Origin: a bacterium
Lineage (GTDB): Bacteria; Patescibacteriota; Microgenomatia; UBA10105; UBA927
Assembly: GCA_021817785.1 (NCBI GenBank)
Contig: JAKAFY010000003.1
Location: 4,376 to 68,375 of the forward strand
DNA: 64,000 nt
Direction: 5' to 3'
Shown here: in pieces, positions 9,943 through 63,907 of the stretch
Position numbering within the stretch: the first letter of the stretch is position 1
How the letters are laid out: every line of letters begins with the position of its first letter
Notes under the pieces: model-generated
Told to the model about the DNA's origin: nothing
What the model saw: the letters and a program-made list of their open reading frames with translations, nothing else
The model's database searches: none
Position numbers and translations under genes: made by a program

Positions 9943-10019
9943 GCCCCCTTCGTCTAGCGGCCTAGGACAACGGGTTTTCAGCCCGTGAATCGCCGGTCCG
10001 AATCCGGCAGGGGGTACCA
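9943..10019 (+). tRNA. tRNA-Glu (UUC)
   Basis: Cloverleaf by hand: acceptor GCCCCCT/AGGGGGT, D arm GTCT-AGCGGCCTA-GGAC, anticodon stem ACGGG/CCCGT with loop TTTTCAG, T arm GCCGG-TCCGAAT-CCGGC, discriminator A, encoded CCA. Confidence 0.85.
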
Positions 10020-10070
10020 CGCACCATTCGGTGCATGGCTACGCAGTAGACATGCGACGAAGGCAAGTGA

Positions 10071-10106
10071 GGGGTGCACCGTATGGTGCGCCCCTTATTT
10101 TGTTTT
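10071..10106 (+). terminator. rho-independent terminator after tRNA-Glu
   Basis: GGGGTGCACC-GTAT-GGTGCGCCCC followed by TTATTTTGTTTT. Confidence 0.7.
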
Positions 10107-10138
10107 ACTAAACAGTGAAAAGCTCGTATCTTTGAAGT

Positions 10139-10158
10139 AAATCCGGCAGGGGTACTCA
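10139..10158 (+). repeat. degenerate direct copy of the tRNA-Glu 3' end (att-like)
   Basis: AATCCGGCAGGGGTACTCAC versus tRNA 3' end AATCCGGCAGGGGGTACCAC, 120 bp downstream. Confidence 0.6.
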
Positions 10159-10164
10159 CAAAAA

Positions 10165-10190
10165 GATCCCGTCTCATGCGGGATTTTTTG
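10165..10190 (+). terminator. second rho-independent terminator
   Basis: ATCCCG-TCTCATG-CGGGAT then TTTTTT. Confidence 0.6.
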
Positions 10191-10317
10191 ACACTATGCG
10201 TTGGCGGATAAGGACCGGGTACTGTGCAAGAAACGTAACATATAATAGACCTATAGTTGTATTATCCTTACAGGTATAGTATACTATTCCCCACTTTTCT
10301 ATCCGAATTCGTCGGAT

Positions 10318-11001
10318 ATGAGAGGCAACACACATCTCTCTATGCCGACACTCACGCTCGAGGCCCAATGGCCCGAATCTGCCACTGTCCACACCTTCCG
10401 CTTTTCTGCGGATCGGCCCGTCCGCTATGACGCCGGCCAGTACGCCCATTTCCTGATACCGTCTGTCCTGTTGTCTTTGGGCAAACCGACCCGCAAATTC
10501 TCGTTTGCCTCTGCTCCCAATGACCCGGATATCCGTATTACAGCCGATATATCTTCCCACAGCGCGTTTAAGGAGACGCTTCGTTCGCTTAAAACCGGAG
10601 ATACCGTCTCTCTCTACCACGTAGAAGGAGAAATGGTCCTCCCCGATACTGCTGAAGGCACGTATGTGTTTATTGCCGGCGGCATCGGCATGACGCCGTT
10701 TCGGTCGATTCTCCGCGATGTCGAGCAACGGAAGCTTCCGGTGACGCCCGTATTAGTCCAGGTCGGCCACCCACCGTATCTCTATGAAGGGGAATTCCGG
10801 GGCAAACCGTTTGAACAGCACCGTATCGGCCGCACGGATGTGGAGAGCACGTTGCAGGATGTTCTGTCCCGCCATGCGGATTCGCACTATTTTATCGCAG
10901 GCTCCTCCGCGTTTGTCCGCGACACTGCCAATCTGCTAGAGCGCCACGGCGTCCCGGCAGACCAGATACGCAGTGATGAATTTGAGGGGTTGAAAGAATG
11001 A
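10318..11001 (+). CDS. FAD/NAD(P)-binding oxidoreductase of the ferredoxin-NADP reductase / siderophore-interacting family
   Basis: RKFSFAS (RxYS FAD motif), FIAGGIGMTPF NAD(P)-binding motif. Confidence 0.75.
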   Translation: MRGNTHLSMPTLTLEAQWPESATVHTFRFSADRPVRYDAGQYAHFLIPSVLLSLGKPTRKFSFASAPNDPDIRITADISSHSAFKETLRSLKTGDTVSLYHVEGEMVLPDTAEGTYVFIAGGIGMTPFRSILRDVEQRKLPVTPVLVQVGHPPYLYEGEFRGKPFEQHRIGRTDVESTLQDVLSRHADSHYFIAGSSAFVRDTANLLERHGVPADQIRSDEFEGLKE

Positions 11002-11081
11002 TACCTCCGAAGATCATCAGACGAAACATAATCCACCAATAGGCTGTCAGCACCGAGGGTTGGTAAAGACTTCGGTTAGTA

Positions 11082-11119
11082 TGTACATGTGTTCGTCGCC
11101 CACACACCGGGGTGTGTAA
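11082..11119. repeat. 38-bp direct repeat DR1 (TGTACATGTGTTCGTCGCCCACACACCGGGGTGTGTAA)
   Basis: Near-identical to DR2 at 12014; contains the hairpin ACACACC-GG-GGTGTGT; lies about 65 bp upstream of the 11186 ORF. Confidence 0.75.
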
Positions 11120-11185
11120 TTTATGTCTAAATTTGGTAAGCTACAAACTATATAAATTTATAACAGTCAGTTCATTCGCTCAAAT

Positions 11186-11863
11186 ATGGCATCGGGAAAC
11201 AAAAACGAGTTATTCAAATCTAGACCTGGGTTTCTTAGTGAAATCGATAGCTTCAACCGATTTTTATATGAAATACACCCACCAAAACTGGAAGAATTAC
11301 AAACCGTTAGAGATGTTCTTGGAGATAGATTTACTGCTCATTTAGCCGACTTACACGCACCATTGTATGTCTTCAATGGACAATCAGGTCTCAACACAAT
11401 TAGTTATCAAAGTGAAGAACGCGGCTCTAATACCCATTCCTTCTTTCACAAGTATCGCAGAACTAACTATGCATCCATCATAGACGGATGGATTGTTTTT
11501 ATAAATACTTGGAAATCAAATGCCAGTTCAAAATTTCGTCCAAATAAAGCCGCAAGATTTGACTTTATGTTGCTAGACGATTGGATGAATGAAGACAACT
11601 TCCGTTTGGCCAATACAAAAAAATTGAAAGCGGATGTGCGGTCAGCCGGCTTATTTACTAGAGGCTCAAGCGTACTTAGAAAAATTCAAAGCTTAGTATT
11701 AAGTGTGCCCGAAGATTGCAGAATAGACATATATTCAGCAAATCTGCAAAGAGAAAAAATATATAGAAAAATGGTAATGAATCATAATAATATTATTGTT
11801 CACAAAAATTATGAAGATGCGGCATCACCCCTCACTAAGCTGATCAGAAGATTAAATCAATAA
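11186..11863 (+). CDS. hypothetical protein (225 aa), low-GC, bracketed by DR1/DR2
   Basis: About 38% GC against about 55% genome background; no recognisable domain. Confidence 0.5.
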   Translation: MASGNKNELFKSRPGFLSEIDSFNRFLYEIHPPKLEELQTVRDVLGDRFTAHLADLHAPLYVFNGQSGLNTISYQSEERGSNTHSFFHKYRRTNYASIIDGWIVFINTWKSNASSKFRPNKAARFDFMLLDDWMNEDNFRLANTKKLKADVRSAGLFTRGSSVLRKIQSLVLSVPEDCRIDIYSANLQREKIYRKMVMNHNNIIVHKNYEDAASPLTKLIRRLNQ

Positions 11864-12013
11864 TTTTGATAATAAATTTACCCTAATCAACTCCACAACT
11901 CAACAAACAATTTATTACACAATGACGTTTCTAATCCTCTCGACAACTGATAGCTTTTGTATTGATCTACGCTGCACATGGCCGTCCGAGGTGGCCATGA
12001 CTTCGATTCGTTT

Positions 12014-12051
12014 GTACATGTGTTCGTCGCCCACACACCGGGGGTGCGTAA
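12014..12051. repeat. 38-bp direct repeat DR2
   Basis: TGTACATGTGTTCGTCGCCCACACACCGGGGGTGCGTAA; differs from DR1 by one inserted G and one T/C. Confidence 0.75.
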
Positions 12052-12070
12052 CATTCGGTTACTCTCTAAT

Positions 12071-13066
12071 TCATCTTTTCTTCTTTTTCTTCTTTTTACC
12101 AGACCATGTTTGGATGTCAGGATACGACATCGACATTTCCGATCCAGCAGACGGAGGACCTATCTTAAAAGCACGGCGTGCGTTTTCTAAATTTGATAAT
12201 TTTCTGGAAACCACGCCGCCCGCTCCGACCGAAATGCGCTCGTAGATAAACTGATCAGCTTTCATCATGCGGCCGTGCCATGTCCCAGGGTCTTCACCCA
12301 AATCTGTTGACGGTCGACGATGCACTCCATGCTCATCCACGATAAAACCGTCGTCTATAGCCTTTCGTAAGTTGGGAGCCATACGGCTCAATATATCCTC
12401 TCTATCCGCTACTGGCAGCATAAAAAAACGTTGAATTGTCTGGGAAACGCGTGGTTCTTTTCGTTTACGTGCACGAGCACTACCAACTGGATTTAATGAA
12501 TTTATATCCTTAGTTCTTTTCGTTCCCCTGGTCACTAAAAATGCAGGAGCCGGCCTCTCTGCTAACTTGGAAGGCATGTATGTAAAATCAGGCTGTCTCA
12601 GCTCTCCCCGAAAAAATGTGAGTGAATGACCAACGTTTCCTGGTAAATTACGTAGAAATTGTAATAACGGCATATCACCATCTGCCGATTGGATCATGAG
12701 ACTACTCGCTCCCTGCTCTTTCGGAAAATAATATTTGTATGGGACCCCTACCATCCTTTCTCCCCCTGCAGTCACTCGCACTACACCGCGCCCCTGTCCC
12801 TTTGAGTCAGGATGATAGTCTGCTTCTGGCATCCAGTGGTATAACTGAGCAGGCTCTTTGGAACGGTTAGTCACAAGGGTAGTGACTATTTTTCGGAATT
12901 GACCCTCTACAGTGAATACCGTATCCGATGCTGCTGCCGTTATGACACCAGTGGCCCCCATACGCTCAAGCGCGGTAGTCATAACATCAGCCGCATTCGT
13001 TTCTACAGACGTAAAATTTGAAGCACCAAAACTCGAATGATCGTCTATTTCCTTTAGTACTGACAT
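12071..13066 (-). CDS. hypothetical protein (331 aa)
   Basis: Long ORF with no recognised motifs; C-terminal KKKKKKKR arises from a ttttcttctttttcttcttttt tract and may reflect a slippage-prone or artefactual end. Confidence 0.5.
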   Translation of the reverse strand: MSVLKEIDDHSSFGASNFTSVETNAADVMTTALERMGATGVITAAASDTVFTVEGQFRKIVTTLVTNRSKEPAQLYHWMPEADYHPDSKGQGRGVVRVTAGGERMVGVPYKYYFPKEQGASSLMIQSADGDMPLLQFLRNLPGNVGHSLTFFRGELRQPDFTYMPSKLAERPAPAFLVTRGTKRTKDINSLNPVGSARARKRKEPRVSQTIQRFFMLPVADREDILSRMAPNLRKAIDDGFIVDEHGVHRRPSTDLGEDPGTWHGRMMKADQFIYERISVGAGGVVSRKLSNLENARRAFKIGPPSAGSEMSMSYPDIQTWSGKKKKKKKR

Positions 13067-13138
13067 GTCCAGAATTATACTATAGGTTCATAATTTGAAC
13101 AACAAGACGCTTTATACATACCTGATAACCTATCTACG

Positions 13139-13152
13139 CCGGGGGTGAGTAA
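13139..13152. repeat. partial third copy of the DR core (CCGGGGGTGAGTAA)
   Basis: About 70 bp upstream of the 331-aa gene start; same promoter-proximal position as DR1. Confidence 0.4.
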
Positions 13153-13175
13153 TCCTTTACTGATTCGCATACTTA

Positions 13176-13592
13176 TCATCGTCTTCGCGCTTTTACGTCA
13201 GCTTTTGCTTTATTCCAGACTTTTGTAGGAGTCACGATTATACGCGGATCATCAATATCCATAAAATAGCTTAAAACTAGCGCAAAATCGTGTGCAACGT
13301 CTGCCAAGGTATTACCATTAGAGCCTGCGATATTATTGAGTGGGGCAACACCTTTCAGCGCGCCAGCCTTCATTGCTCGGGCAAATCCTATTGGTGCACA
13401 ATATGAAGAGGATGCACCATTAATAACAAATATTTTACCACCCGAATCATTGATTGCGTCCTTTAATTCGGAGTCATCGTCTATACTGGCCCCCACCACC
13501 CAGCCTTGCTTACGACGTTTTTTAGCTAATTCATTTTGACTCGGAACTTCCCCTTCACCGACAAAAACTTTTATAACCTCTGATTTTTGCAT
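13176..13592 (-). CDS. hypothetical protein (about 138 aa), possible Rossmann-like small protein
   Basis: Start placed at MQKSEVIKVFVGEG; alternating beta-alpha pattern (KVFVGEG...KIFVINGASS...) with no firm family assignment. Confidence 0.4.
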   Translation of the reverse strand: MQKSEVIKVFVGEGEVPSQNELAKKRRKQGWVVGASIDDDSELKDAINDSGGKIFVINGASSSYCAPIGFARAMKAGALKGVAPLNNIAGSNGNTLADVAHDFALVLSYFMDIDDPRIIVTPTKVWNKAKADVKARRR

Positions 13593-13764
13593 ATTGCTAC
13601 GGGTAGCGTAACATATTTGCCCATTCCTCACCCGCTTTCATTTTGATTCTCTTCCCCTTCCAAAACAGGATGAAACACGGAAGGGCTGTCGCAGGTTCGA
13701 AGACTCACCCCTGACCCGCATCAGGGCGGCGACGCGAGGTTTGGAGTATAATGCCATTGTATTT

Positions 13765-15210
13765 ATGTCACTAAAGGATTATTTGGATTTTGATCTTCTT
13801 TTTGATTACTTAGAACGAAATATCTATTCTAAGCGGTCTCTAGTTCTCTTCTGTTTTTTATTTCCAGTTATAAGCAGTCTCGCTTTAGACATACTTAAAC
13901 TTTCTCTTAACAATTTCTATTGGTGGATTACTGTTGCCATAGTAGATGTTATCTGGGTGATATTCTGGATTGCGCATCGCAATAAGTATCCCAAGGTGAC
14001 AAAGGGGAAAATTGGAGTAGTGCTAGCCATAGAGACCGAAAATAATCTTATTAGAACAAAAGTTTATAAGGATTTTGTAAATCACTTTAATAAGTTAATC
14101 TTAGAGAACGGTTTAGCGAACTATATTCAACTTATAGAACTTAATGAGTATCAATCCTCAATTTTATCCAACGTCTTAATAAAACATTCGGAATATTTAT
14201 CTCAATTTAGAAGAGATGGATACTTTGATAAAACATCAAGGCCTCAGGACTTGGAAAAAATGCAAGGTAAAATAGGAGGACATTTCTATATATGGGGGAA
14301 AATACGAAAGAGATTAGATAAAGAAAGCAAGTATTTCTTGGATATTGATGGGCTAGTCAGACACATCGGAATTGGAGTAGAAAAACATAAATTAGTTACA
14401 AATAATTTTCTTGAAGCGTGGTTTAAACGGATAGAATTTAGCGAAATATTTGAACTAAAAGGTTTCGAGATCTCTGCTGAACTAGTGTTTCTAGTAGCAA
14501 AGTATATTGTAGGTGTTGCTGCACTTGTATCCCATGACCCCTTGTTAGCACTGACACTTCATTCAAAGCTAAAGGGCGAACTTGCGGATATTTTAACTAA
14601 ATTCAATCCACCACCTCAAAATCTTATTACTATTAGTAAAAAACTAGATTCGTTTATCGCGGAAGAAAATTCATTACTGGCAACTTGGTACATTAGAAAC
14701 GGAAGACCTGACTTATGCGACAAGTATATTCAAGATAGTTTTGCTGCAAAAGCTGAAAATTATTCTGGCTATATTCTTAAAGCATTAAGAGGTTTCCAAG
14801 AAGGGAATATAAAGGAATCTTTTGATTATGTAATGAAGGCGAAAAAAATAGCGGTAAATAACCAAATATGGAGATATGACCTTGCATTCCTTTATATGTG
14901 GGCTGATGATTATAAAAAGGGACTTGCAGAATACAAAAAAATTGCAGAAAAAACTTTTGCAGGAGAAGTTATTACAGTATCGGAAATTATTGACTTTCAA
15001 AAAAAGCTACTAACAACTAATCCAAAATTTGCAGTGAGTTATTTTATATTGGGCTTTCTGTATTATAAAAAATTAAGTAATTTACCAAACGCGCTAGAAA
15101 ACTTTGAAACATTTATGGCTGAAACTAAAAAAATCCCTGCATTCAAGAACTTACGCGAGGTAACGCAGTCGTATTTGTCCGAAATTTCTAAAGGAATGAG
15201 TCTAAAATAG
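13765..15210 (+). CDS. membrane-anchored TPR-like repeat protein (2 N-terminal TM helices), very low GC
   Basis: About 33% GC; N-terminal hydrophobic helices (LVLFCFLFPVISSLAL, WWITVAIVDVIWVIFWIA); Lys-rich C-terminal region with TPR-like helical repeats; TATAAT box just upstream. Confidence 0.55.
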   Translation: MSLKDYLDFDLLFDYLERNIYSKRSLVLFCFLFPVISSLALDILKLSLNNFYWWITVAIVDVIWVIFWIAHRNKYPKVTKGKIGVVLAIETENNLIRTKVYKDFVNHFNKLILENGLANYIQLIELNEYQSSILSNVLIKHSEYLSQFRRDGYFDKTSRPQDLEKMQGKIGGHFYIWGKIRKRLDKESKYFLDIDGLVRHIGIGVEKHKLVTNNFLEAWFKRIEFSEIFELKGFEISAELVFLVAKYIVGVAALVSHDPLLALTLHSKLKGELADILTKFNPPPQNLITISKKLDSFIAEENSLLATWYIRNGRPDLCDKYIQDSFAAKAENYSGYILKALRGFQEGNIKESFDYVMKAKKIAVNNQIWRYDLAFLYMWADDYKKGLAEYKKIAEKTFAGEVITVSEIIDFQKKLLTTNPKFAVSYFILGFLYYKKLSNLPNALENFETFMAETKKIPAFKNLREVTQSYLSEISKGMSLK

Positions 15211-15314
15211 TTCCAATTTCGTCCCAACACCTGTACCATCGTTATCACATTCCCCACCCTTGACTCCAAAAATTGTCCTAGTATATGATTGAACAGTTGT
15301 TCAATTAAACAAGT

Positions 15315-15665
15315 ATGCTTACCACAGAAGATATCAACACTATCAAAGCCGCCGTGGCACGTACCGCGGGCATAGACGCACGTGCGGCGCTGGCCAGGTG
15401 CCTGGCAGACCCAACGTCTCTCAAAATCCTCTATGTGCTGACCCGGAAAAACAATGTGTGCCCCAGCGATTTGGCAGCCATACTCTCACTATCCCTGTCT
15501 ACCGTGTCCCACCAGCTTTCCAAATTAAAGCAGATGGGCGTCGTATCCACTATCCGCCACGGACACATGATATGCTATTCATTGGAACCGACAGAGAAAT
15601 CGGACCTGATCCGAAAGCTCGTGACTATGATCATGGACGGGAAACTCAACGGAGGAGTGGTATGA
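15315..15665 (+). CDS. ArsR/SmtB-family transcriptional regulator
   Basis: Winged HTH: VCPSDLAAILSLSLSTVSHQLSKLKQMGVV. Confidence 0.85.
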   Translation: MLTTEDINTIKAAVARTAGIDARAALARCLADPTSLKILYVLTRKNNVCPSDLAAILSLSLSTVSHQLSKLKQMGVVSTIRHGHMICYSLEPTEKSDLIRKLVTMIMDGKLNGGVV

Positions 15666-15925
15666 ACATAACATTCTATGGGGCGACGTGGTGCCCGGAT
15701 TGCCGCCGGTCAAAAGAGTATCTGGATACACATAACATCCCCTATGACTACATAGATTTGGAAACCGTGCCGGAAGCGGCAGATGAAGTCGTGCGGATAA
15801 ACCATGGGCTGCAATCTATCCCGACCATCGTGTTCCCAGACGGCACCGTATTGGTAGAGCCAACCAATGCTGCGCTGGAAAATGCCGTAACAGCAAACAA
15901 AGATACACTCTCGCACTACGTATGA
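15662..15925 (+). CDS. glutaredoxin-like / NrdH-like thioredoxin-fold protein
   Basis: ATGA start/stop overlap with the ArsR gene, GGAGGAG RBS; MNITFYGATWCPDCRR with CPxC redox motif, 87 aa. Confidence 0.8.
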   Translation: MNITFYGATWCPDCRRSKEYLDTHNIPYDYIDLETVPEAADEVVRINHGLQSIPTIVFPDGTVLVEPTNAALENAVTANKDTLSHYV

Positions 15926-16545
15926 AACTCTTTTACCTGCTTATCGGCATGGTAGCCGCGCTGGCGCTTGCGCTCGTGTCCTACGGGATGCTGCGCGCTA
16001 ATTCCAGCTTGGGACTGCTCTATGTGCATACGTCGGCAACGTATGTGTTTTGGTTTGTAGCGCTTTCTGCCATGTCCGCCATATTGTTTGGCATCAATAC
16101 CGCGCTTTTTGTCTATGAATGGCGGAGGTTCGGTCTGACACGGTTTTTCCACTACGGCGGGGGCGGCATCGGCGCGGTATTTAGTGTATTTGCCTCGGTG
16201 TGCCCGGTGTGCGGGTCTGCCGTGGTGTCTGCTATAGGAGCCATAAGCGGACTGGCCACACTCCCCTTTCAGGGATTGGAAGTAAAAATAGCGGCAACCC
16301 TCGTATTGGTTGCCGCCACAATCTATTCCGTGATACTGCTGCGGCAAAAAAACTGCCATGGCGCCCATTGTCCTGCCCCGCGGGACGATCGGCTGAAACG
16401 CTGGGAACAACGTATATACATCCCGCTTCTCGTTACCAGTATGGCACTCTGTATAGTGGCCGGATGGCAATGGTTCGCGGGAGACAGCATACGCTCGCCG
16501 GAGGCCATGGCGCAGGCGCGGTATAGTTGCACTGCAAAAAAATAA
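15922..16545 (+). CDS. polytopic membrane protein with intramembrane CPVC and C-terminal CHGAHC cysteine pairs
   Basis: About 5-6 predicted TM helices; ASVCPVCGSAVVS motif inside a TM helix; translationally coupled to the Grx-like gene. Confidence 0.55.
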   Translation: MKLFYLLIGMVAALALALVSYGMLRANSSLGLLYVHTSATYVFWFVALSAMSAILFGINTALFVYEWRRFGLTRFFHYGGGGIGAVFSVFASVCPVCGSAVVSAIGAISGLATLPFQGLEVKIAATLVLVAATIYSVILLRQKNCHGAHCPAPRDDRLKRWEQRIYIPLLVTSMALCIVAGWQWFAGDSIRSPEAMAQARYSCTAKK

Positions 16546-16582
16546 TACGGAATAGACACGGAGGATACGCGGTGCGCAATCT

Positions 16583-16864
16583 TTAGATCTTTATCTTCTT
16601 TCGTGGGACATCTTTCGTTTTTTCGTACCAACGATAAAAATCCGCGACATTGGCGTCGGCAGTAAGTAGCAGAGAGAGAACTTTGTCCCGGATGAGCAGC
16701 GACGACACCGATGCATCGGGCACCGTGCGGATCCAGGTAGATACCTGAGCGGCAAGCGCTTTGGCTTGTTCGTCCGGCAATCCCGCGGCTTGTACCACAC
16801 GGACGACTTTGGCTTCTTCATACGCCTCCGTACTTCCGTCGCGTTTCAGAACTTTTTTATCCAT
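16583..16864 (-). CDS. ATP-cone domain protein
   Basis: MDKKVLKRDGSTEAYEEAKVVRVVQAAGL matches the ATP-cone N-terminal pattern (V-KRDG-E-F). Confidence 0.55.
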   Translation of the reverse strand: MDKKVLKRDGSTEAYEEAKVVRVVQAAGLPDEQAKALAAQVSTWIRTVPDASVSSLLIRDKVLSLLLTADANVADFYRWYEKTKDVPRKKIKI

Positions 16865-16995
16865 AAGGATATAGTTATACCATACCTGGCGCTGCGTCGT
16901 GAATAGCGATCGTATCCGGAAGCCACACTATAATATGAAAGCTGACGCAATCTACACAACTGGCATAGAATGAATAACGAGCCGAGTGCAATCCG

Positions 16996-25180: not shown

Positions 25181-25891
25181 ATGAATATACACATCATCCT
25201 GCACGAATCATTTGAAGCGCCTGGGGCCATCGCGACGTGGGCCGGAAGCCGCGGCCACTCGATAACATATACGCGTTTATATGATAAAGAGCATCTTCCG
25301 AAGGATGCTTCTGGTTTTGATTTTCTTGTGATCATGGGCGGGCCGCAGTCACCTGCTACTACAACAGATGAGTGCTCATATTTTGATGTAAAAAAAGAAA
25401 GTGCACTCGCAAAAAATGCAATTAATAATGGCAAATATGTATTTGGCGTCTGCCTCGGAGCTCAAATCATCGGAGAAGCACTTGACGCCATATTTGACCA
25501 CAGCCCGAATCGAGAAATCGGATTTTTCCCAATTGCACTTACTGAAGTGGGCAAGAATGACCCGTTACTTCAAGGATTTCCTGATACGTTTGTCGTCGGC
25601 CACTGGCACGGCGATATGCCTGGGCTCACGTCGACCTCTCAAATACTGGCAACCAGTGTCGGGTGCCCGAGACAAATCGTTCGGTACACACCAAAGGTCT
25701 ACGGGTTCCAGTGTCATTTAGAATTTACGTCAGAATCTATTGAGGGCATGATAGCAAACAGCGGCAAAGAGTTGTCTGACAACGCGGGATTGCCGTATGT
25801 CTGGCCTGCGGCAAAACTCCGGGGGCATGGTTGCAAACCCATGAATGAGCTTTTGTTTACTTTCCTCGACCGGCTTACCCAACAACCATAA
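25181..25891 (+). CDS. class I glutamine amidotransferase-like protein
   Basis: GVCLGAQ nucleophile elbow, later His in a GATase1 layout. Confidence 0.8.
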   Translation: MNIHIILHESFEAPGAIATWAGSRGHSITYTRLYDKEHLPKDASGFDFLVIMGGPQSPATTTDECSYFDVKKESALAKNAINNGKYVFGVCLGAQIIGEALDAIFDHSPNREIGFFPIALTEVGKNDPLLQGFPDTFVVGHWHGDMPGLTSTSQILATSVGCPRQIVRYTPKVYGFQCHLEFTSESIEGMIANSGKELSDNAGLPYVWPAAKLRGHGCKPMNELLFTFLDRLTQQP

Positions 25892-25938: not shown

Positions 25939-26010
25939 GGGTCGGTAGCTCAATGGTAGAGCAGTAGCCTTTTAAGCTATTGGTTCTGGGTTCGAGCCCC
26001 AGCCGACTCA
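25939..26010 (+). tRNA. tRNA-Lys (UUU)
   Basis: Acceptor GGGTCGG/CCGACTC, D arm GCTC-AATGGTA-GAGC, anticodon loop CTTTTAA, T arm CTGGG-TTCGAGC-CCCAG, discriminator A; TATAAT 9 bp upstream. Confidence 0.85.
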
Positions 26011-26017
26011 CTAGATA

Positions 26018-26048
26018 AAATATGCCGCCTTGTGTGGCATATTTTATA
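26018..26048 (+). terminator. rho-independent terminator after tRNA-Lys
   Basis: AAATATGCC-(9-nt loop)-GGCATATTT then T-rich. Confidence 0.6.
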
Positions 26049-26087
26049 TAATGCATTGGGGCGAGATGTTTATCCCGCCAAGCGGGA

Positions 26088-26104
26088 AGCCCCAGCCGAC
26101 TCAC
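26088..26104 (+). repeat. direct copy of the tRNA-Lys 3' end (AGCCCCAGCCGACTCAC)
   Basis: 17/17 identity to the tRNA T-stem and acceptor 3' strand, 78 bp downstream, preceded by the hairpin TCCCGC-CAA-GCGGGA. Confidence 0.65.
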
Positions 26105-55289: not shown

Positions 55290-55293
55290 AGAT

Positions 55294-56379: not shown

Positions 56380-56383
56380 ATCG

Positions 56384-56583
56384 TACTTTATAAACTTTCT
56401 AACTTTATGAACTTTACGAACTTTATGAACTTTCTCACTTTATAAACTTTATGAACTTTCCAACTTTATAAACTTTATGAACTTTTCACTTTTTCCCCTT
56501 CTCACTTTATAAACTTTCCAACTTTATAAACTTTATGAACTTTCTAACTTTATAAACTTTACGAACTTTCTCACTTTACGAAC
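56384..56583. repeat. 9-bp tandem repeat array D (about 22 units ACTTTATRA / ACTTTCYMA)
   Basis: tactttataaactttctaactttatgaactttacgaactttatgaactttctcactttataaactttatgaactttccaactttataaactttatgaacttttcactttttccccttctcactttataaactttccaactttataaactttatgaactttctaactttataaactttacgaactttctcactttacgaac. Confidence 0.9.
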
Positions 56584-57900: not shown

Positions 57901-57967
57901 ATGTATGGAAGGCAACGTGCCGCACGTATGAAGACTGATACATCGCGACGCTATCACGGTTATTCTA

Positions 57968-58564
57968 TCATCGAATTCCCAGAGACTCACGGAGCCGTTC
58001 TACAGGATGCAAACCACCGTGAGGAAAATCAAATTCATTAACTGTCATTCCGTGAAGCCGATCCGGTAATATAATCTCTTCATCCTGCCAAAGTCGCCTC
58101 GTCACGGCAGGGTGTAGCACGCGTTGTGCGACTAAACGATCCAACGCTCCAACCGGATACCATCGCCATGGGCCATGTTTGTTAGGTTCCCGACGCTCGG
58201 GCGGAGCACCGTCTGTCGCTTCATCATAGTAGATATAAAATATTTGCATCCGACGCCAAAATCCATCTTGATTAACCTCAACTGGTGACCTATGTCTGCC
58301 GATAAGATATTCTGGACTCCATATTCTTCTTCCCGTTTCTTCTGGCATCTCACGCATGGCAGTTTGTTCAAACGTTTCTCCATCCTCCCCTTTTCCACCA
58401 GGAAGGGTAAGCAGCCCCTTATTAACTCCAAGTAAGCGTCTGGCTAGTAATACTTTTGGGTCGCTCTCTGCGTCTTTAATAGCAACAATGGCCGCCACAC
58501 GGGTTGCAAATATTCGAGGAGTCCTGACTGAGCGTTCTCTAATCATTAGCAGACATTCTATCAC
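57968..58564 (-). CDS. NUDIX hydrolase
   Basis: Nudix box LPGGKGEDGETFEQTAMREMPEETG. Confidence 0.75.
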   Translation of the reverse strand: MIECLLMIRERSVRTPRIFATRVAAIVAIKDAESDPKVLLARRLLGVNKGLLTLPGGKGEDGETFEQTAMREMPEETGRRIWSPEYLIGRHRSPVEVNQDGFWRRMQIFYIYYDEATDGAPPERREPNKHGPWRWYPVGALDRLVAQRVLHPAVTRRLWQDEEIILPDRLHGMTVNEFDFPHGGLHPVERLRESLGIR

Positions 58565-58598
58565 TCCTGAAAAGTCGCTTCATATCACGCGATACAGA

Positions 58599-59090
58599 TT
58601 ATACAATTGGCGTGTTCAGAAACACATGGACAAACACATCTTCGCCTTTGTAGCTGATAGTCTCCACGCCTATAGACAACGGCAAGTCAGGATAGTCTTT
58701 CATCGGGGTATAGGTATACTTCCAGTCTCCATCGGGAGCCAAATCAACCGGTTCATGTAGACGTGTGCGATCTGCAACGTTCGGCAATGTTGATTTCAGG
58801 TATGCCATAACCTGCTCTTCGGTTATACCCAACTGTTGTAGTTTTTCCGGCTTTACGATGCCTCCAGCAAACACACGGGTCGCCATCTCATCGCCTGTCT
58901 GCGCTATCTCCTGACCGCCCCCAATCCGCTTCGCAATCCAGTGATCATTGTACTTCGCATCTAATTCGGGAAACGACAATTCAGTGGCTTTCAACGTAAA
59001 CGGGCCACGCGTCACGGTTTGCCGCTGGCTTCCGCCTGCGTATCCCGCTTTCAACCCCATCGTTAATACGTTGTCTGCATTGGACATCAT
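58599..59090 (-). CDS. hypothetical protein (163 aa)
   Basis: ORF only. Confidence 0.4.
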   Translation of the reverse strand: MMSNADNVLTMGLKAGYAGGSQRQTVTRGPFTLKATELSFPELDAKYNDHWIAKRIGGGQEIAQTGDEMATRVFAGGIVKPEKLQQLGITEEQVMAYLKSTLPNVADRTRLHEPVDLAPDGDWKYTYTPMKDYPDLPLSIGVETISYKGEDVFVHVFLNTPIV

Positions 59091-59093
59091 AGA

Positions 59094-59999
59094 TTACATC
59101 GCCCGAAGTCTCTTTATCCGCTCTTCTATGGGCGGATGAGTATCAAAAAGTCCTGCAAACCATGCACCGTAATTTTTCCCCTTAAACGGATTGGTGATAT
59201 AGAGGTGCGCCGTGGCATTGGTCGCCGCTTCTAAAACCTCCTGGTCCTTTGCAAGCTTTTGCAAGGCGCTTGCTAGTCCCGCAGGATACCGCGTCAGGAG
59301 AGCGCCGGAAGCGTCCGCCAGATATTCCCGGTTTCGGGACACGGCAAGCTGGATCATGGTCGCAAAAATCGGAGAAAGGATAGCCAAAATGATGCCGACA
59401 AGCATCATGATTTGCCCTAAATTTCCGTCCCGGTCATCTCGTCTCCTTCCGCCGCCCCACCACAGCGTCCGCATAAAAAAGTCCGCCAGAAATACGATCG
59501 TTCCCACCAGCACTGCTACCACCGCCATAAGCCGGATATCGAAATTTTTTATGTGGCTCATCTCGTGGGCGATGACGCCCTCCAGCTCCCGACGGTCCAG
59601 ACGTGCCAAAATACCGCTGGTGGCACATACCACTGCATGCTCGGGATCCCTGCCCGTGGCAAACGCATTCATCGCGGTATCGTCGATGACATAGAGTTTG
59701 GGCTTCGGGATACCGGCTGCTATGGCCAGATTTTCCGCCACGGTAAAAAAGTCAAAATCCGTTCTCCGGTCGGCGGGTCTCGCGCCGGACATCGCAAGCA
59801 CCATTTGATCTCCCCAATAGTAGCTTGCAAAGCTCGATATCACGGCAAAAAGTACCGCAAACCACATGAATCCGTTGCCGTACCCTAACGCCTGGCCCAT
59901 CACGTATCCCACGACGATCACAAAGGCGATAAACAGCGCCATGATGACATAGGACTTTGTGATATTGCCACGGATAGAAGATTGGATACTCATATACAC
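59094..59999 (-). CDS. htpX: zinc metalloprotease HtpX (M48)
   Basis: TM helices plus VIAHEMSHI HExxH and downstream NREYLADA motif. Confidence 0.9.
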   Translation of the reverse strand: MYMSIQSSIRGNITKSYVIMALFIAFVIVVGYVMGQALGYGNGFMWFAVLFAVISSFASYYWGDQMVLAMSGARPADRRTDFDFFTVAENLAIAAGIPKPKLYVIDDTAMNAFATGRDPEHAVVCATSGILARLDRRELEGVIAHEMSHIKNFDIRLMAVVAVLVGTIVFLADFFMRTLWWGGGRRRDDRDGNLGQIMMLVGIILAILSPIFATMIQLAVSRNREYLADASGALLTRYPAGLASALQKLAKDQEVLEAATNATAHLYITNPFKGKNYGAWFAGLFDTHPPIEERIKRLRAM

Positions 60000-60001
60000 G
60001 T

Positions 60002-60080
60002 GTCATTCCCGCGAACGCGGGAATCCAGCGTATGATACACTGGATCCCCGACTCGCCTCGATTCGGCGGAGCGGGTCAGG
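60002..60080. repeat. dispersed double-hairpin element, copy 2 (inverted relative to copy 1)
   Basis: GTCATTCCCGCGaacGCGGGAATCCAGCGTATGATACACTGGATCCCCGACTCGCC...GGCGGAGCGGGTC. Confidence 0.75.
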
Positions 60081-60093
60081 CCAAAAAATAACG

Positions 60094-60651
60094 TTAGAAG
60101 TTCACTTTCACTGCTTTCCGATCTTCGTCGCTCGCCCCAAAAAATTGCTTTTCGCCGAATCCTAACTGGCTGGCAATCATGGAATTCGGGAAGACTTTGA
60201 TTTTGACGTTGTAGTCCATCACCGTTGAATTGTAGTACTGGCGGCTGTAGGCTACTTTGTCTTCCGTATCGGAAAGCTCTTTCTGAAGCTGCAAAAATTC
60301 ATCATTTGCCTTCAGATCCGGGTAGGCTTCTGCCACGGCAAAGAGTTTGCCGAGTGCGCCGCTTAACGCGTCGCTAGCCTGCGCTTTTCCTGCCATCGTG
60401 GATGCACCCATGAGGGCACTCCGGGCCTTCGTAACATCGGAAAACACGCTTTTTTCATGCTTGGCATAGCCTTTCACCGTTTCCACCAGGTTCGGGATCA
60501 GGTCAGCCCGGCGTTTAAGCTGGACATCGATCTGGCTCCATGCTTCATCTATCGCCATCTTCATCGAGATCAAGCCGTTATAGAGCGACCATACATAGAG
60601 GGCAAGAAGTACTACTATTCCTCCGACGATCCAAAATGTATTCATATACAT
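60094..60651 (-). CDS. lemA: LemA-family protein
   Basis: N-terminal TM plus LemA core (DEAWSQIDVQLKRRADLIPNLVETVKGY); strong AGGAGGAGGA RBS. Confidence 0.85.
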   Translation of the reverse strand: MYMNTFWIVGGIVVLLALYVWSLYNGLISMKMAIDEAWSQIDVQLKRRADLIPNLVETVKGYAKHEKSVFSDVTKARSALMGASTMAGKAQASDALSGALGKLFAVAEAYPDLKANDEFLQLQKELSDTEDKVAYSRQYYNSTVMDYNVKIKVFPNSMIASQLGFGEKQFFGASDEDRKAVKVNF

Positions 60652-60663
60652 CCTCCTCCTACG

Positions 60664-60737
60664 TTGAAAGTTTATAAAGTTTCAAGTTTTTAACCTTATG
60701 AACTTTATGAACTTTATGAACTTTCGAACTTATTATG
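60664..60737. repeat. 9-bp tandem repeat array E (forward then inverted units)
   Basis: ttgaaagtttataaagtttcaagtttttaaccttatgaactttatgaactttatgaactttcgaacttattatg; encodes the polX C-terminus KFESS*. Confidence 0.85.
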
Positions 60738-62519
60738 TAACCAACCGTTAAATTTATTATACTCCAGCGTGTTTACGATGTCATGTTTCGTGCTCCACCC
60801 GCGTCGTGCCACCGATACGCCGTAGCGCATGAGCGTCATGTGCTCCGCAGCATGCGCGTCCGTGTCTATACAAAAGCGGATGCCCATGTTGCGGGCGTCA
60901 TACACCAATGTGTCGGGCAGATCCAGTCGTTCGGGGTATGCGTTTATTTCCAGCGCGATATCGTGTTGTTTTACCACCTCAAAGACGGCGGGCCAGTCCG
61001 CATCTATGCCTTCCCTGCTTCCCAGTAGTCTTCCGGTAGGATGCCCGAAGATCCGGACCTTTGGGTGGGCAGTCAACGCCCGGATCAATCGTGCAGTCAC
61101 GACCTCTCGTGGTTGCGTAAACGCGGAATGGACGGAAACGATGACGGCATCCACATATTCCAGTGCCTCATCCGGCAGAGCGAGTCTTCCGTCAGGCAGT
61201 ATATCCACTTCGCACATGAGGAAATAATGTGTTCGTCCTTTCACGCGGTCTTTCCACGAGGAATATTGGTGTTCATATGCAAGCCTCCGGCGCTTCATTA
61301 TGTCAACAATCTGTTGCTTCGTGTGGTTCGTTATTCCGGGATTATGATCGGAAAATCCGATGTACTCGTACCCCAGGCGTTCTGCCGTCGTCAGCAATTC
61401 CCCTATGGAATCCTTTCCCAAATCATGGGATGGCTCCAGATCATAATTGGAATGCGTATGCAGATCGCCGCGGATATCGCCAAGCTCGACAAGATCCGGC
61501 AATCCGCTGGGTCTCCCCTGTGCCCGACACAGAGAAGCGGATATCTCTCCGCGGTCTTCCCGCAGTTCAGGAGGTATATAGGTCAGCCCGATTGCTTTAT
61601 AAAACGACTCTTCGGTTTCATATTCGGTGAGTTTTCCGGTACGTACGGATTTTATGCCGTGTTCGGAAAGGGACAGTCCCCGGGATAACGCCAGCTCGCG
61701 AAGCTGTATATTGTGGTTTTTGGACCCGGTAAAGTACTGAAGCATGGCGCCGTACGCTTTCGGCGACTGTACCCGCAAATCTGCCTGTCTGCCGTTTGTC
61801 AAAAGCAGCGTCGCCCCGCGCGTACCCTGATCCACGATGCGCTGATGCGGAAACGAAACAAATTGTTCGATGATCGTTTGTGGCTCAGTCGTGGCTACTG
61901 CTATATCGATATCCCCGATCGTCGATACCTGCCTGCGCAGACTCCCCAACACGTCATATCGGGTGGCTTTTCCTTTCTTTTTTAGGTGAGCGATAAGTTC
62001 CTGCGCGATTTGGTCAGCATACGGCAATGGCATCCGGTTTTCTTTGATCTGCCCGCGCTTATAGATGGCTATAGACTCCAGGATGACACCCTGCGACTTC
62101 TCGCCGAATCCCTCAAGCGGCGCTATTTTCCCGGATTTTGCCGCTTTTTCGAGGTCGGAAACGACGGTTTTTGCGTTATCGAGCTTCAGCGTGGTTACCA
62201 ATGTGTATGCTTTCTTGGGGCCGATACCGGGAACCAGCAGCAATGGAAATATTGCCTGTGGTACTTTTGCGAACACACTCTCCCAATGTTTGGACTTGCC
62301 GGTTTTAAACAATTCATCCAGATTACTGGCGATTCCTCCTCCCACACCGGGGATATCTTCCAGTTTTCCATCATCCCACATGTCTTTGACGTCACTCGTC
62401 AGATGTTCGATGCTGTCGGCAGCCCGTTCATAGGCAATGATACGGAATCTGTTTTCGTTCAGGACTAAGTATGCCGCGGCTACTTTACGAAGCAATTGTG
62501 CGATCTCTAGATTGGTCAT
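60714..62519 (-). CDS. polX: family X DNA polymerase with C-terminal PHP domain
   Basis: N-terminal HhH/8-kDa and pol-beta-like palm (GSLRRQVSTIGDIDIAV), C-terminal PHP (HTHSNYD...). Confidence 0.9.
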   Translation of the reverse strand: MTNLEIAQLLRKVAAAYLVLNENRFRIIAYERAADSIEHLTSDVKDMWDDGKLEDIPGVGGGIASNLDELFKTGKSKHWESVFAKVPQAIFPLLLVPGIGPKKAYTLVTTLKLDNAKTVVSDLEKAAKSGKIAPLEGFGEKSQGVILESIAIYKRGQIKENRMPLPYADQIAQELIAHLKKKGKATRYDVLGSLRRQVSTIGDIDIAVATTEPQTIIEQFVSFPHQRIVDQGTRGATLLLTNGRQADLRVQSPKAYGAMLQYFTGSKNHNIQLRELALSRGLSLSEHGIKSVRTGKLTEYETEESFYKAIGLTYIPPELREDRGEISASLCRAQGRPSGLPDLVELGDIRGDLHTHSNYDLEPSHDLGKDSIGELLTTAERLGYEYIGFSDHNPGITNHTKQQIVDIMKRRRLAYEHQYSSWKDRVKGRTHYFLMCEVDILPDGRLALPDEALEYVDAVIVSVHSAFTQPREVVTARLIRALTAHPKVRIFGHPTGRLLGSREGIDADWPAVFEVVKQHDIALEINAYPERLDLPDTLVYDARNMGIRFCIDTDAHAAEHMTLMRYGVSVARRGWSTKHDIVNTLEYNKFNGWLHNKFESS

Positions 62520-62548
62520 AGTTCTTATAGTATAATGCAAAAGTTAAT

Positions 62549-62561
62549 GGGATCGTAGCTC
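62549..62561 (+). repeat. 13-nt copy of the tRNA-Asp 5' end (GGGATCGTAGCTC)
   Basis: Identical to tRNA-Asp positions 1-13; followed at once by a 34-nt nested stem-loop CCCGTCGTCGAGACCTTCGGTCACGACTGACGGG. Confidence 0.6.
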
Positions 62562-62639
62562 CCGTCGTCGAGACCTTCGGTCACGACTGACGGGCCCGGC
62601 AGCACTACGAAGTTGTGCGTCGGGCAGCCGAGTATAAAT

Positions 62640-62879
62640 ATGTATTTTTATACATATGTACTAAAAAGTAAAAAGGATAATAAACTTTACATCGGTTCAT
62701 CGGGCGATATCAAAACAAGATTAAAAGCACACAATGCAGGAGAGGTAGAATCAACAAAATCGAGAAGACCTTTGGAACTGATATACTTTGAAGCGTGCAC
62801 AAGCAAGAAAAAAGCAGAAGATCGAGAATTATATTTTAAAACAGGATTTGGAAGAAAATTTTTAAAAAATAGATTGTAG
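62640..62879 (+). CDS. GIY-YIG nuclease-domain protein (79 aa), low GC
   Basis: YFYTYVLKSKKDNKLYIGSSGDIKTRLKAHNAG is a canonical GIY-YIG motif; about 35% GC; stop 5 bp before tRNA-Asp. Confidence 0.75.
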   Translation: MYFYTYVLKSKKDNKLYIGSSGDIKTRLKAHNAGEVESTKSRRPLELIYFEACTSKKKAEDRELYFKTGFGRKFLKNRL

Positions 62880-62884
62880 CAATT

Positions 62885-62959
62885 GGGATCGTAGCTCAGC
62901 CTGGTTAGAGCGTCTCCCTGTCAAGGAGAAGGTCGCCGGTCCGAACCCGGTCGGTCCCG
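62885..62959 (+). tRNA. tRNA-Asp (GUC)
   Basis: Acceptor GGGATCG/CGGTCCC, D arm GCTC-AGCCTGGTTA-GAGC, anticodon loop CTGTCAA, T arm GCCGG-TCCGAAC-CCGGT, discriminator G. Confidence 0.85.
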
Positions 62960-63110
62960 CATTGACATTTCTTAACGATCCCGAGTATATCGAGGGAGAG
63001 TTTAGAAATGACAATGCCCACCAACTATCGCTCTGTGAGCCGTTAGGCGAACAGCAAAGATATGGCGGGCTTACCCACTATCACTGCCTGGAACGGAGGA
63101 AATTTTTTAC

Positions 63111-63656
63111 ATGGTAGAACAACTTAAAAAACTTACCAATCCGGACTCACTCGTATCGTTATTTTTAGGTTTGGCAGTCGTGGTCGTCATCGGCGTCATG
63201 ATCGTCAACTACGTCAAAGGCAAACAAGCTCCGGCAACGAAAGACCAGACGACAGAGACGCAGCAAAATGCCACAACCTCCGGAACGTTACCTGCTACCT
63301 ATACCGTCGAATCCGGAGAAACACTCTGGAGTATCGCGGAAAAAACCATCGGAAGCGGGTATAACTATGTTGACATCGCAGAAGCCAACAAACTCATGAA
63401 TCCGAATCAGATCTCCGCTGGGGAAACCTTAACCATTCCGAATGTACCCAAACGGGAACCGGGACAGGTTTCATCGGCATCCGTGGAAACCCATAGACCG
63501 GCAGACGGCAAATATACCGTCCAAAAAGGAGATTCGCTTTGGAGTATTTCCGTCGCCGTATATGGCACCGGATATCGATGGAGCGAAATTGCGACACTCA
63601 ACAAACTGGAAGACCCGGGGCTTATCTTTAGCGGCAATGTTCTGATGCTGCCCTGA
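63111..63656 (+). CDS. LysM-repeat protein with N-terminal membrane anchor
   Basis: TM helix, then two LysM motifs (YTVESGETLWSIA...ISAGETLTIP; YTVQKGDSLWSIS...IFSGNVLMLP). Confidence 0.85.
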   Translation: MVEQLKKLTNPDSLVSLFLGLAVVVVIGVMIVNYVKGKQAPATKDQTTETQQNATTSGTLPATYTVESGETLWSIAEKTIGSGYNYVDIAEANKLMNPNQISAGETLTIPNVPKREPGQVSSASVETHRPADGKYTVQKGDSLWSISVAVYGTGYRWSEIATLNKLEDPGLIFSGNVLMLP

Positions 63657-63686
63657 GACAGTTTGCGAACCGTTTGTATTTGATAT

Positions 63687-63714
63687 AATCCTGATAGACT
63701 GTCAGGATTGTTTT
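63687..63714 (+). terminator. rho-independent terminator (or leader hairpin) after the LysM gene
   Basis: AATCCTGA-TAGACTG-TCAGGATT then GTTTT. Confidence 0.5.
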
Positions 63715-63717
63715 AGT

Positions 63718-63788
63718 GCGGGTATAGTACACTGGTAGTATGCGACCTTCCCAAGGTTGAGAAGAGGGTTCGATTCCCTTTACCCGCT
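63718..63788 (+). tRNA. tRNA-Gly (CCC)
   Basis: Acceptor GCGGGTA/TACCCGC, D arm GTAC-ACTGGTA-GTAT, anticodon loop TTCCCAA, 4-nt variable loop, T arm GAGGG-TTCGATT-CCCTT, discriminator T. Confidence 0.85.
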
Positions 63789-63795
63789 CAAAAAG

Positions 63796-63825
63796 AAAAT
63801 GGGTTTCTGCCCATTTTCCTTTTTG
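63796..63825 (+). terminator. rho-independent terminator after tRNA-Gly
   Basis: AAAATGGG-TTTCTG-CCCATTTT then CCTTTTT. Confidence 0.7.
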
Positions 63826-63893
63826 ACAGGGAAGGGATGAATACCTGATTGGTTCGACCGTGTCCCTCGTAGCCAGAATGGCGAAGTGGGATA

Positions 63894-63907
63894 CCCTTTA
63901 CCCGCTC
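63894..63907 (+). repeat. direct copy of the tRNA-Gly 3' end (CCCTTTACCCGCTC)
   Basis: 14/14 identity to the tRNA T-stem 3' strand, acceptor 3' strand and discriminator, 106 bp downstream, preceded by the small hairpin GCCAGAATGGC. Confidence 0.6.

Follow-up and report, generated by a model that had tools for sequence, protein, structure and literature searches.

The window analysed here is a stretch of 64,000 nucleotides (nt) from contig JAKAFY010000003.1 (assembly GCA_021817785.1, GTDB lineage Patescibacteriota; Microgenomatia), and the subject of this report is a set of short copies of tRNA gene ends that lie beside the tRNA genes themselves. The window is part of the chromosome of a Gottesmanbacteria-like bacterium (Patescibacteria) and has a GC content of 50%; its genes include, among others, those of DnaE and of a PolX-PHP polymerase. 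Its best PolX relatives are metagenome-assembled genomes of Gottesmanbacteria, with at most 77% amino-acid identity. Four tRNA genes are present, all on the plus strand, and ARAGORN and Rfam are concordant on them:

9943-10019, plus strand: tRNA-Glu(UUC), intact, CCA encoded (ARAGORN; Rfam tRNA, 52.6 bits)
25939-26011, plus strand: tRNA-Lys(UUU), intact (ARAGORN; Rfam, 72.5 bits)
62885-62960, plus strand: tRNA-Asp(GUC), intact (ARAGORN, Rfam)
63718-63789, plus strand: tRNA-Gly(CCC), intact, no encoded CCA (ARAGORN, Rfam)

At 77-121 nt downstream of tRNA-Glu, tRNA-Lys and tRNA-Gly, and on the same strand, lies a copy of the gene's own 3' end. The DNA between gene and copy will be called the insert, and the features of the three loci are the following:

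10017-10139, plus strand: Glu insert, 123 nt, with a strong terminator hairpin at 10065-10100
10140-10155, plus strand: tRNA-Glu 3'-end copy, AATCCGGCAGGGG-TAC, 16/17 with one G lost
10166-10190, plus strand: native tRNA-Glu terminator, behind the copy, ATCCCGTCTCATGCGGGAT plus a T-run; the hairpin is also found by the terminator scan
26012-26087, plus strand: Lys insert, 76 nt, with hairpins at 26020-26046 and 26073-26087, the latter abutting the copy
26088-26104, plus strand: tRNA-Lys 3'-end copy, AGCCCCAGCCGACTCAC, 17/17, from T-loop AGC through C74
63790-63889, plus strand: Gly insert, 100 nt, with a terminator at 63795-63818 and the left part of an element of about 58 nt
63890-63907, plus strand: tRNA-Gly 3'-end copy, extended, GATaCCCTTTACCCGCTC, 17/18
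63894-63907, plus strand: core of the tRNA-Gly 3'-end copy, CCCTTTACCCGCTC, 14/14

The Glu copy comprises the AAT of the T-loop, the 3' strand of the T-stem, the 3' strand of the acceptor stem, the discriminator and C74. Directly after the Gly copy, a CA (to 63909) completes a CCA, as in the tRNA-Gly of the closest relatives. No further match of at least 11 nt to the Glu, Lys or Gly 3' ends was found in the 64 kb on both strands, and the rough chance expectation for a 14-mer within about 130 nt is about 3e-5 per tRNA. The three copies had been proposed from the letters alone, in what we call the sequence-only reading, and they are real and far beyond chance at these distances. The Lys copy at 26088 and the Gly copy at 63894 were placed correctly, the latter being extendable to 17/18 from 63890; the Glu copy is present as well, although it begins at 10140 and not at 10139, with one G missing. 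A terminator-like hairpin stands between tRNA and copy at all three loci, as had been stated: those of Glu and Gly were called by the terminator scan, and the third, at 26020-26046 behind tRNA-Lys, was read from the sequence since the scanner did not call it. The second, small hairpin said to abut each copy is found 5' of it at Lys (26073-26087, TCCCGCCAAGCGGGA, GC) and at Gly (63872-63882); at Glu it follows the copy (10166-10184) and belongs to the native terminator. Furthermore, the statement that three of the four tRNAs are affected holds for 3' copies but overlooked a mirror-image copy of the 5' end at the fourth, tRNA-Asp, to which we return below.

The material for comparison consisted of 80 loci of relatives around PolX, where tRNA-Asp, LysM, tRNA-Gly and often tRNA-Thr are syntenic, and of 80 further metagenomic loci (L numbers denote loci of the comparison). 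In a local-alignment scan of 181 tRNAs against their 600-nt flanks (score of at least 24), 18 same-strand matches were downstream and 13 upstream; reverse-complemented and reversed flanks gave no match at that score. Polarity was also counted over whole loci for 226 tRNAs from the window and the relatives, with up to two mismatches:

Last 16 nt copied (226 tRNAs): same strand, 14 downstream and 1 upstream; opposite strand, 1
First 16 nt copied (226 tRNAs): same strand, 0 downstream and 7 upstream; opposite strand, 0

Chance as the source of the copies is ruled out by both control scans, which gave, over window and relatives, a same-strand excess with controls near zero. There is hardly any variation in the boundaries. 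The 3' half of the T-loop is where the 3' copy begins in about a dozen cases, 13-16 nt ahead of the discriminator, and this start is shared by six isotypes (Lys, Gly, Glu, Asp, Thr and Gln), while two weaker matches begin a few nt later. In most cases identity ends one base past the discriminator, so that the duplicated block extends from about nt 58 to C74 (16-18 nt) in the six isotypes. Given these polarity counts and boundaries, the 3'-copy feature is real, polar, position-specific and widespread in the clade. An assembly artefact is ruled out for positions 62400-64000, because ten independent assemblies (GCA_021839525.1 and nine others) are 100% identical across this stretch.

Among the relatives, the same structure recurs, but most of about 65 orthologous tRNA-Gly and tRNA-Asp loci are without a copy. 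Only about a sixth of the tRNA-Gly loci have one; the closest relatives (L001-L009) mostly lack it at tRNA-Gly, with 3' fragments in L004 only. Where copies exist, they lie between 28 and more than 250 nt from the tRNA, at the most 2.5 kb, and the spacers are unrelated. Since most orthologous loci are without the copies and both their spacing and the DNA in between differ, they are not a conserved trailer signal, and the suggestion of a conserved processing or termination signal is not supported. The same variability makes it very unlikely that the copy is functional and kept by selection in any other form, be it as a decoy for a nuclease or integrase that attacks tRNA 3' ends or as a site on the opposite strand that pairs with the tRNA 3' end. 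Such a function would account for matches of 17/17, 17/18 and 16/17 in inserts that are otherwise unlike a tRNA, for a copy in L044 and L049 that tracks the local tRNA at a variable base, and for the hairpin that adjoins many copies, GC hairpins being enriched near tRNAs. On the other hand, the Glu copy is one base short, and no strand is available for an acceptor-like helix: the longest complement in the inserts measures only 5-6 nt and falls outside the acceptor strand, and in minimum-free-energy folds the acceptor part of the copy is largely unpaired. Nor does any Rfam family match the inserts or a cassette of about 170 nt described below.

The origin of the copies can be followed best at the Glu locus. 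Through a homologue of the gene downstream of tRNA-Glu we found L171, in which a terminator (ATCCCGCCTTGTGCGGGATTTTT) stands directly behind an intact tRNA-Glu. The terminator behind the Glu copy of the window agrees with it at 20 of 23 positions, and none of 1000 shuffles reached this score, whereas the trailer behind the live tRNA-Glu of the window has no similarity to the trailer of L171 (p = 0.3). In addition, CCA is absent from both the Glu copy and the tRNA-Glu of L171, and it is encoded in the live gene of the window. It follows from this homology that the Glu copy and its flank are the displaced native 3' end, with about 123 nt and one repeat inserted before it. At 96 nt downstream, behind a terminator and two GC hairpins, L171 itself carries another 3' copy, so that such events recur and stack. 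The flank behind the Gly copy resembles, weakly, the flank directly behind tRNA-Gly in L061. For tRNA-Lys, the searches gave no comparable site: a metagenome scan with the GATase gene found no conserved synteny, a scan of viral contigs with the tRNA-Lys 3' end found no match, and the SNase neighbours led to tRNA-Lys only in other contexts, with no comparable empty site. Three details of the Glu locus may be added. The top of the acceptor stem of tRNA-Glu is a G1-U72 wobble, present in L171 too; tRNA-Glu is alone among the four tRNAs of the window in encoding CCA; and a short match (CCGGGTAC) at 10222-10232, behind the native terminator, may be a third, decayed layer of tRNA-Glu 3' end.

The Glu locus also bears on the idea of a local tandem duplication of the tRNA, by slippage or unequal crossing-over, with later loss of the 5' part of the second copy. 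Duplication of tRNA and flank together is excluded there, because the trailers behind the live tRNA and behind the copy are unrelated. As a general explanation, it would likewise account for same-strand fragments of the 3' end behind the gene and of the 5' end before it, and longer partial copies do exist in relatives (L004, L044, L045 and L060, for example). However, the breakpoints are in nearly all cases clustered in the 3' half of the T-loop instead of being scattered, the inserts of the window have no significant further similarity to the tRNA or its promoter, which makes such a history improbable at all three loci, and homologous inserts occur in distant genomes. We give this explanation hardly any weight, less even than a selected function.

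The tRNA-Asp of the window presents the mirror image of the other three loci. Upstream of it, the following arrangement is found:

62549-62561, plus strand: stranded copy of tRNA-Asp nt 1-13, directly after a promoter-like TAGTATAAT box
62562-62639, plus strand: leader containing two long GC hairpins; it separates the 5' fragment from the open reading frame (ORF)
62640-62879, plus strand: stand-alone GIY-YIG nuclease ORF, 79 amino acids (aa), Pfam GIY-YIG E = 4e-17

The copy has 13 nt and lies 336 nt upstream of the intact gene, and the stop codon of the ORF is 5 nt before tRNA-Asp. The nearest solved structure to the protein is the UPF0213 protein 1ZG2. The layout of promoter-like box, nt 1-13, hairpin and ORF is also present in L007, L180 and L195, and the leader is homologous in L007 (82% over 92 nt) and in L025. 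The ORF itself is 81-82% identical to those of L007 and L025, where PolX is only 73% and 64% identical, respectively; closer relatives, whose PolX is at 74-77%, do not have it. An ORF at 81% in L025, against 64% for PolX, and its absence from nearer genomes indicate that it probably spread horizontally.

Association of such ORFs with tRNA genes is not restricted to this locus. In about 950 kb of relatives there are 16 GIY-YIG ORFs, 12 of which end 9-65 nt upstream of a same-strand tRNA, and a thirteenth ends 124 nt upstream of one; a stranded 5' fragment of the cognate tRNA was found upstream of the ORF in all ten cases inspected. Homologues with 62-89% identity occur in Daviesbacteria, Roizmanbacteria, Collierbacteria, Shapirobacteria, Parcubacteria and others. 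Four of their contexts were inspected: the ORF ends 1 nt before tRNA-Lys in L180 (Daviesbacteria), 0 nt before tRNA-Pro in L195 (Shapirobacteria) and 75 nt before tRNA-Lys in L191, and in L188 no tRNA stands beside it. In L180 and L195, nt 1-13 of the cognate tRNA plus a hairpin precede the ORF, so that one nuclease subfamily sits at junction 13/14 of the tRNA structure in three isotypes, Asp, Lys and Pro. Homologous ORFs are also found directly upstream of tRNA-Gly in other genomes of the candidate phyla radiation (CPR). For other GIY-YIG subfamilies, the junction with the tRNA is in the anticodon loop (L179) or in the T-loop (L004, L043, L045 and L053), and the T-loop junction coincides with the start position of the 3' copies. 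In L045 and L004, a GIY-YIG cassette and 3' fragments are present at one and the same tRNA. GIY-YIG genes have been reported in rRNA insertions of CPR bacteria (PMC11270868); in our literature searches we found no description of GIY-YIG cassettes in their tRNA genes.

The inserts of the window are not similar to one another, and a search with nhmmer in 1.56 Mb revealed no further copies of them. They have no terminal inverted repeats (the first and last 25 nt pair at 4-8 positions), and no further similarity to a tRNA or its promoter was significant. A reading of the Lys insert as a decayed tRNA-Lys gene with a -10 box was discarded, its alignments scoring no better than shuffles. Relatives of the inserts exist elsewhere, though. 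The Lys insert is colinear with the Glu insert of L171 (z = 5.4 against shuffles), which ranks first in likeness to it among 210 real tRNA trailers from other sources; both begin A-rich and continue with a terminator (core CCGCCTTGTG), and after a spacer comes a CCCGC...GCGGG hairpin. A terminator module shared behind many tRNAs was considered and rejected, as the CCGCCTTGTG motif stands behind a tRNA in only two cases. The element of about 58 nt at the Gly locus (63850-63907, including the copy) is 86% identical over 58 nt (BLAST) to the trailer of tRNA-Gly in L023, whose PolX is only 64% identical to that of the window; the element is missing from relatives at 71-77%.

Inserts related to each other were also found between other genomes. 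One of about 170 nt, without an ORF and on the minus strand, is common to three loci behind tRNA-Gly:

L010, 4860-5060, minus strand: ORF-less insert of about 170 nt
L074, 4745-4940, minus strand: the same insert
L045, 4230-4400, minus strand: the same insert

It is flanked by ATTCCCTTATCCCGCTC in L010 and L074 and by ATTCTCGTATCCCGCTC in L045. Another, of about 100 nt, is common to L044 and L049, and both of its repeats vary between the genomes at the same base. Related inserts flanked by repeats that match the local tRNA suggest that the duplication derives from the target. As a separate observation, the insert of about 170 nt has hairpins, some with compensatory changes (GTAACGAAGTTAC as compared with ATAACGAAGTTAT, for example), and its 3' end reads GAGCAAGCTC, after which the copy of the tRNA 3' end begins; the insert may be a structured RNA.

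Taking these results together, we assign a probability of roughly 0.65 to the reading of the three copies as scars left by insertions within the tRNA genes. A loop-to-acceptor-base block (nt 58-74 or 1-13) is duplicated around an insertion that leaves the tRNA intact, the distribution is patchy, and GIY-YIG ORFs are associated with tRNA genes; at the Glu locus, the stranded fragment retains its native outer flank. The idea of integration scars, raised in the sequence-only reading, thus survives as far as the scar is concerned, and not in its agent, as no integrase was seen in the intervals examined. What is found repeatedly at these tRNAs is a small GIY-YIG nuclease gene together with GC hairpins; the nuclease gene had escaped the sequence-only reading. 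The process could be as follows. An ORF-less segment of 76-123 nt with its own terminator would enter the tRNA gene within the block from nt 58 to C74, bringing along, in two of the three cases, a small hairpin next to the copy. The block of about 17 nt would end up on both sides of the insert, the upstream repeat completing a working tRNA and the downstream repeat persisting as a dead fragment on the original downstream DNA. The source of the duplicated block would be the target and not the element, as in a target-site duplication, and the duplication would be made at the moment of insertion. On the 5' side, the same process may have duplicated nt 1-13 of tRNA-Asp around the hairpin leader and the GIY-YIG gene, which would be expressed from the tRNA promoter and freed at the 5' cut of RNase P. 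The ORF-less inserts would be decayed or non-autonomous relatives of the GIY-YIG cassettes. That the GIY-YIG nuclease is the cutting enzyme is a more tentative proposal, to which we give well under half of the probability given to the scars.

Several points weigh against this account. The evidence for a native flank comes from the Glu locus and is weak at Gly, where the match to L061 amounts to 76% over 66 nt and is in part the tRNA end itself. A polymorphism of empty and occupied sites was not found, the ten assemblies of the population being identical. The link of the GIY-YIG gene to the three inserts is one of association only, and tblastn gave no significant match in any of them to such a gene or a remnant of it. 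The protein of 79 aa consists of the catalytic domain alone, without a DNA-binding domain, and its cleavage of tRNA genes is putative; no GIY-YIG enzyme is known to make a staggered cut of 17 nt, and I-TevI leaves overhangs of 2 nt. The likeness between the Lys insert and the Glu insert of L171 is modest and is not reported by nhmmer. Finally, repeats that match the local tRNA could also stem from gene conversion between the live tRNA and the copy.

The principal alternative for the agent of insertion is a classical integrase. A tyrosine-integrase element carrying a replacement tRNA 3' end in its attachment site attP would have inserted in the T-loop; after a later deletion of almost all of it, attL and attR would remain with about 100 nt of element DNA between them. 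The signature of attachment sites proposed in the sequence-only reading is in fact there: the copies run from the T-loop to the tRNA 3' end with strict polarity of strand and side. Such an identity block, from the T-loop to the 3' end, is reportedly the textbook integrase signature, as Williams is said to have put it in 2002. The copies begin in the T-loop in nearly all cases, the upstream repeat restores the tRNA, and the downstream repeat stands on native flank, as the Glu copy does; moreover, integrative elements use tRNA-Lys and tRNA-Glu in relatives. However, integrases are not known to produce the 5' class of copies (nt 1-13), which does not fit this explanation. tRNA gene fragments left by integrating elements are documented (PMC9897764). 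In the window, though, the intervals measure 76-123 nt and no integrase is seen in them, and the tRNA-to-copy intervals of the relatives, including those of 0.9-2.5 kb, revealed no recombinase or fragment of one, their ORFs being judged by translation and not by a domain search. The longer intervals carry, as cargo, a toxin-antitoxin-like pair (by sequence) in L026 and an ORF of 228 aa in L102; of the integrated elements that the sequence-only reading had suggested looking for between the two copies in relatives, none with a recombinase appeared in the intervals examined. The core borne by an element should be constant, whereas the repeats vary with the local allele and apparently with the isotype, which is not decisive in view of gene conversion. 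Furthermore, the internal deletions would have had to occur repeatedly and to stop short of both junctions at three of the four tRNAs. The integrases that do occur beside tRNAs are large serine recombinases, and an element of that kind is not the source of the 3' copies, since the one examined, in L196, shows no tRNA 3' copy at its far end. On balance, we consider an origin as classical attachment-site scars unlikely, though it deserves more weight than either a selected function or a tandem duplication.

The recombinase-bearing element just mentioned (L196, 4040-8932, about 5 kb) lies beside tRNA-Lys and comprises a helix-turn-helix gene, a D5-type primase-helicase and the large serine recombinase, whose gene is convergent with the tRNA-Lys 3' end and overlaps it. 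In L191/L192 (1-677), a recombinase gene is convergent on the tRNA-Glu 3' end.

Other known systems resemble the insertions in part. In fungal mitochondria, free-standing homing-endonuclease genes insert together with a replacement for part of a gene and strand the original fragment, as a GIY-YIG ORF does in Allomyces atp6. At tRNA-Asp, there is likewise a GIY-YIG ORF beside the working gene and a stranded fragment on the far side, the spread is patchy (81% for the ORF against 64% for PolX), and the GC-rich hairpins around the insertions recall mitochondrial GC clusters and double-hairpin elements. Here, however, it is bacterial tRNA genes that act as hosts, the nuclease consists of the catalytic domain alone (79 aa), the same subfamily lies at the same position in Asp, Lys and Pro tRNA genes, and the Glu, Lys and Gly loci hold no ORF, the GIY-YIG gene being within an insert of the window only at tRNA-Asp. 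Casposons insert at the 3'-distal part of tRNA genes with a target-derived duplication, and the tRNA survives (PMC4779613). The fixed block of about 17 nt behaves like their long target-site duplication; the inserts of the window, in contrast, are of about 100 nt and have no terminal inverted repeats, Cas1 or transposase, and bacterial casposons are reported as intergenic and not in tRNA genes. Families of transposons or miniature inverted-repeat transposable elements have many dispersed copies, unlike these mutually unrelated inserts. In Escherichia coli, tyrT is followed by a tandem array of a 178-bp unit, with repeats that begin with the last bases of tRNA-Tyr. There too a copy of the tRNA 3' end stands shortly behind its own gene, but that is one locus with one unit, while here single copies with unrelated spacers occur at many tRNAs in many genomes. 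The logic is common to the attachment-site, casposon and homing systems, and their defining parts are absent: with no integrase, Cas1, inverted repeats or ORF at the three loci, the insertions are a variant of those known.

A more speculative extension of the insertion reading, which we put forward tentatively, is that selfish cassettes of CPR bacteria invade tRNA genes of any isotype at landmarks of the cloverleaf and not at a sequence. All the breakpoints seen fall at such landmarks: the acceptor base (0/1 and 74/75), the D stem-loop junction (13/14), the anticodon loop (about 33) and the T-loop (57/58). A bare GIY-YIG domain of the UPF0213 type, related to structure-specific nucleases such as Slx1, would cut tRNA-gene DNA extruded as a cloverleaf, once in a loop and once at the acceptor base; the duplication of nt 1-13 or nt 58-74 would result from insertion and fill-in. 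The cassette, leaving the tRNA intact, would profit from a strong promoter and from processing by RNase P, and the three ORF-less scars of the window would be non-autonomous or decayed members of the family. If the nuclease does read DNA structure instead of sequence, this would be a new targeting principle for a homing-type element.

tRNA genes are known as landing sites of integrase-borne islands. Here the insertions are tiny, come without an integrase and have the same boundaries in unrelated tRNAs, and they recur at most of the tRNAs in one stretch of a streamlined genome of about 1 Mb. Such tiny insertions, together with the GIY-YIG genes at tRNA 5' ends across candidate phyla, point to a tRNA-gene-specific mode of mobile-DNA insertion, of which no description was found in our literature searches. 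It would explain the variability of the DNA beside tRNA genes in these genomes, its scars would be a source of pseudo-tRNA calls in annotation, and it offers a possible route for the exchange of tRNA alleles.

GC hairpins are frequent near the tRNA genes in general. Hairpins with stems of at least 6 bp lie within 350 nt of tRNAs in 69 of 166 cases, against 10% expected (p = 6e-26), a four-fold enrichment, part of which may reflect intergenic location. A genome-wide family of GC hairpins was rejected as an explanation, with only seven such hairpins in the 64 kb. Common to L045 and L060 is a pseudo-tRNA piece in which the anticodon arm is replaced by a CCCCGCC-NNN-GGCGGGG hairpin, and a hairpin-bearing piece of this kind stands upstream of tRNA-Gly in L004, L043, L053 and L080. 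In the partial tRNA-Gly copies of L004, L043, L045, L053, L060 and L080, the 17-nt anticodon stem-loop has given way to a CCCCGCC-NNN-GGCGGGG hairpin of 16-17 nt. In L051 and L041, additional GC hairpins interrupt the stranded 5' fragment.

A degenerate, older pseudo-tRNA-Gly lies in L161 (8078-8200), 1.4 kb downstream of the live tRNA-Gly and about 1.3 kb past the right end of the window, window position 64000 corresponding to about L161 position 6890. It is located behind three small genes, has a GC hairpin of about 40 nt in its T-loop and ends in ...ATCCCGCTCCA, the allele of the closest relatives. The live tRNA-Gly of the window is 100% identical to that of the distant relative L045 (PolX 58%). 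Together, these two facts are suggestive of a horizontal replacement of the tRNA-Gly allele, in a molecule too short for a firm phylogeny.

Finally, a class-I glutamine amidotransferase gene, homologous to that at 25181-25891 of the window, is found beside tRNAs of varying isotype in the more distant CPR contigs L083, L139, L144 and L102. In L083 (430-1926), it stands between two different tRNA-Gln(CUG) genes, the second of which is preceded by a GIY-YIG ORF, and in L139, L144 and L102, tRNA-Gln is accompanied by copies of 3' or 5' fragments. The amidotransferase gene may travel as cargo of tRNA-linked insertions.

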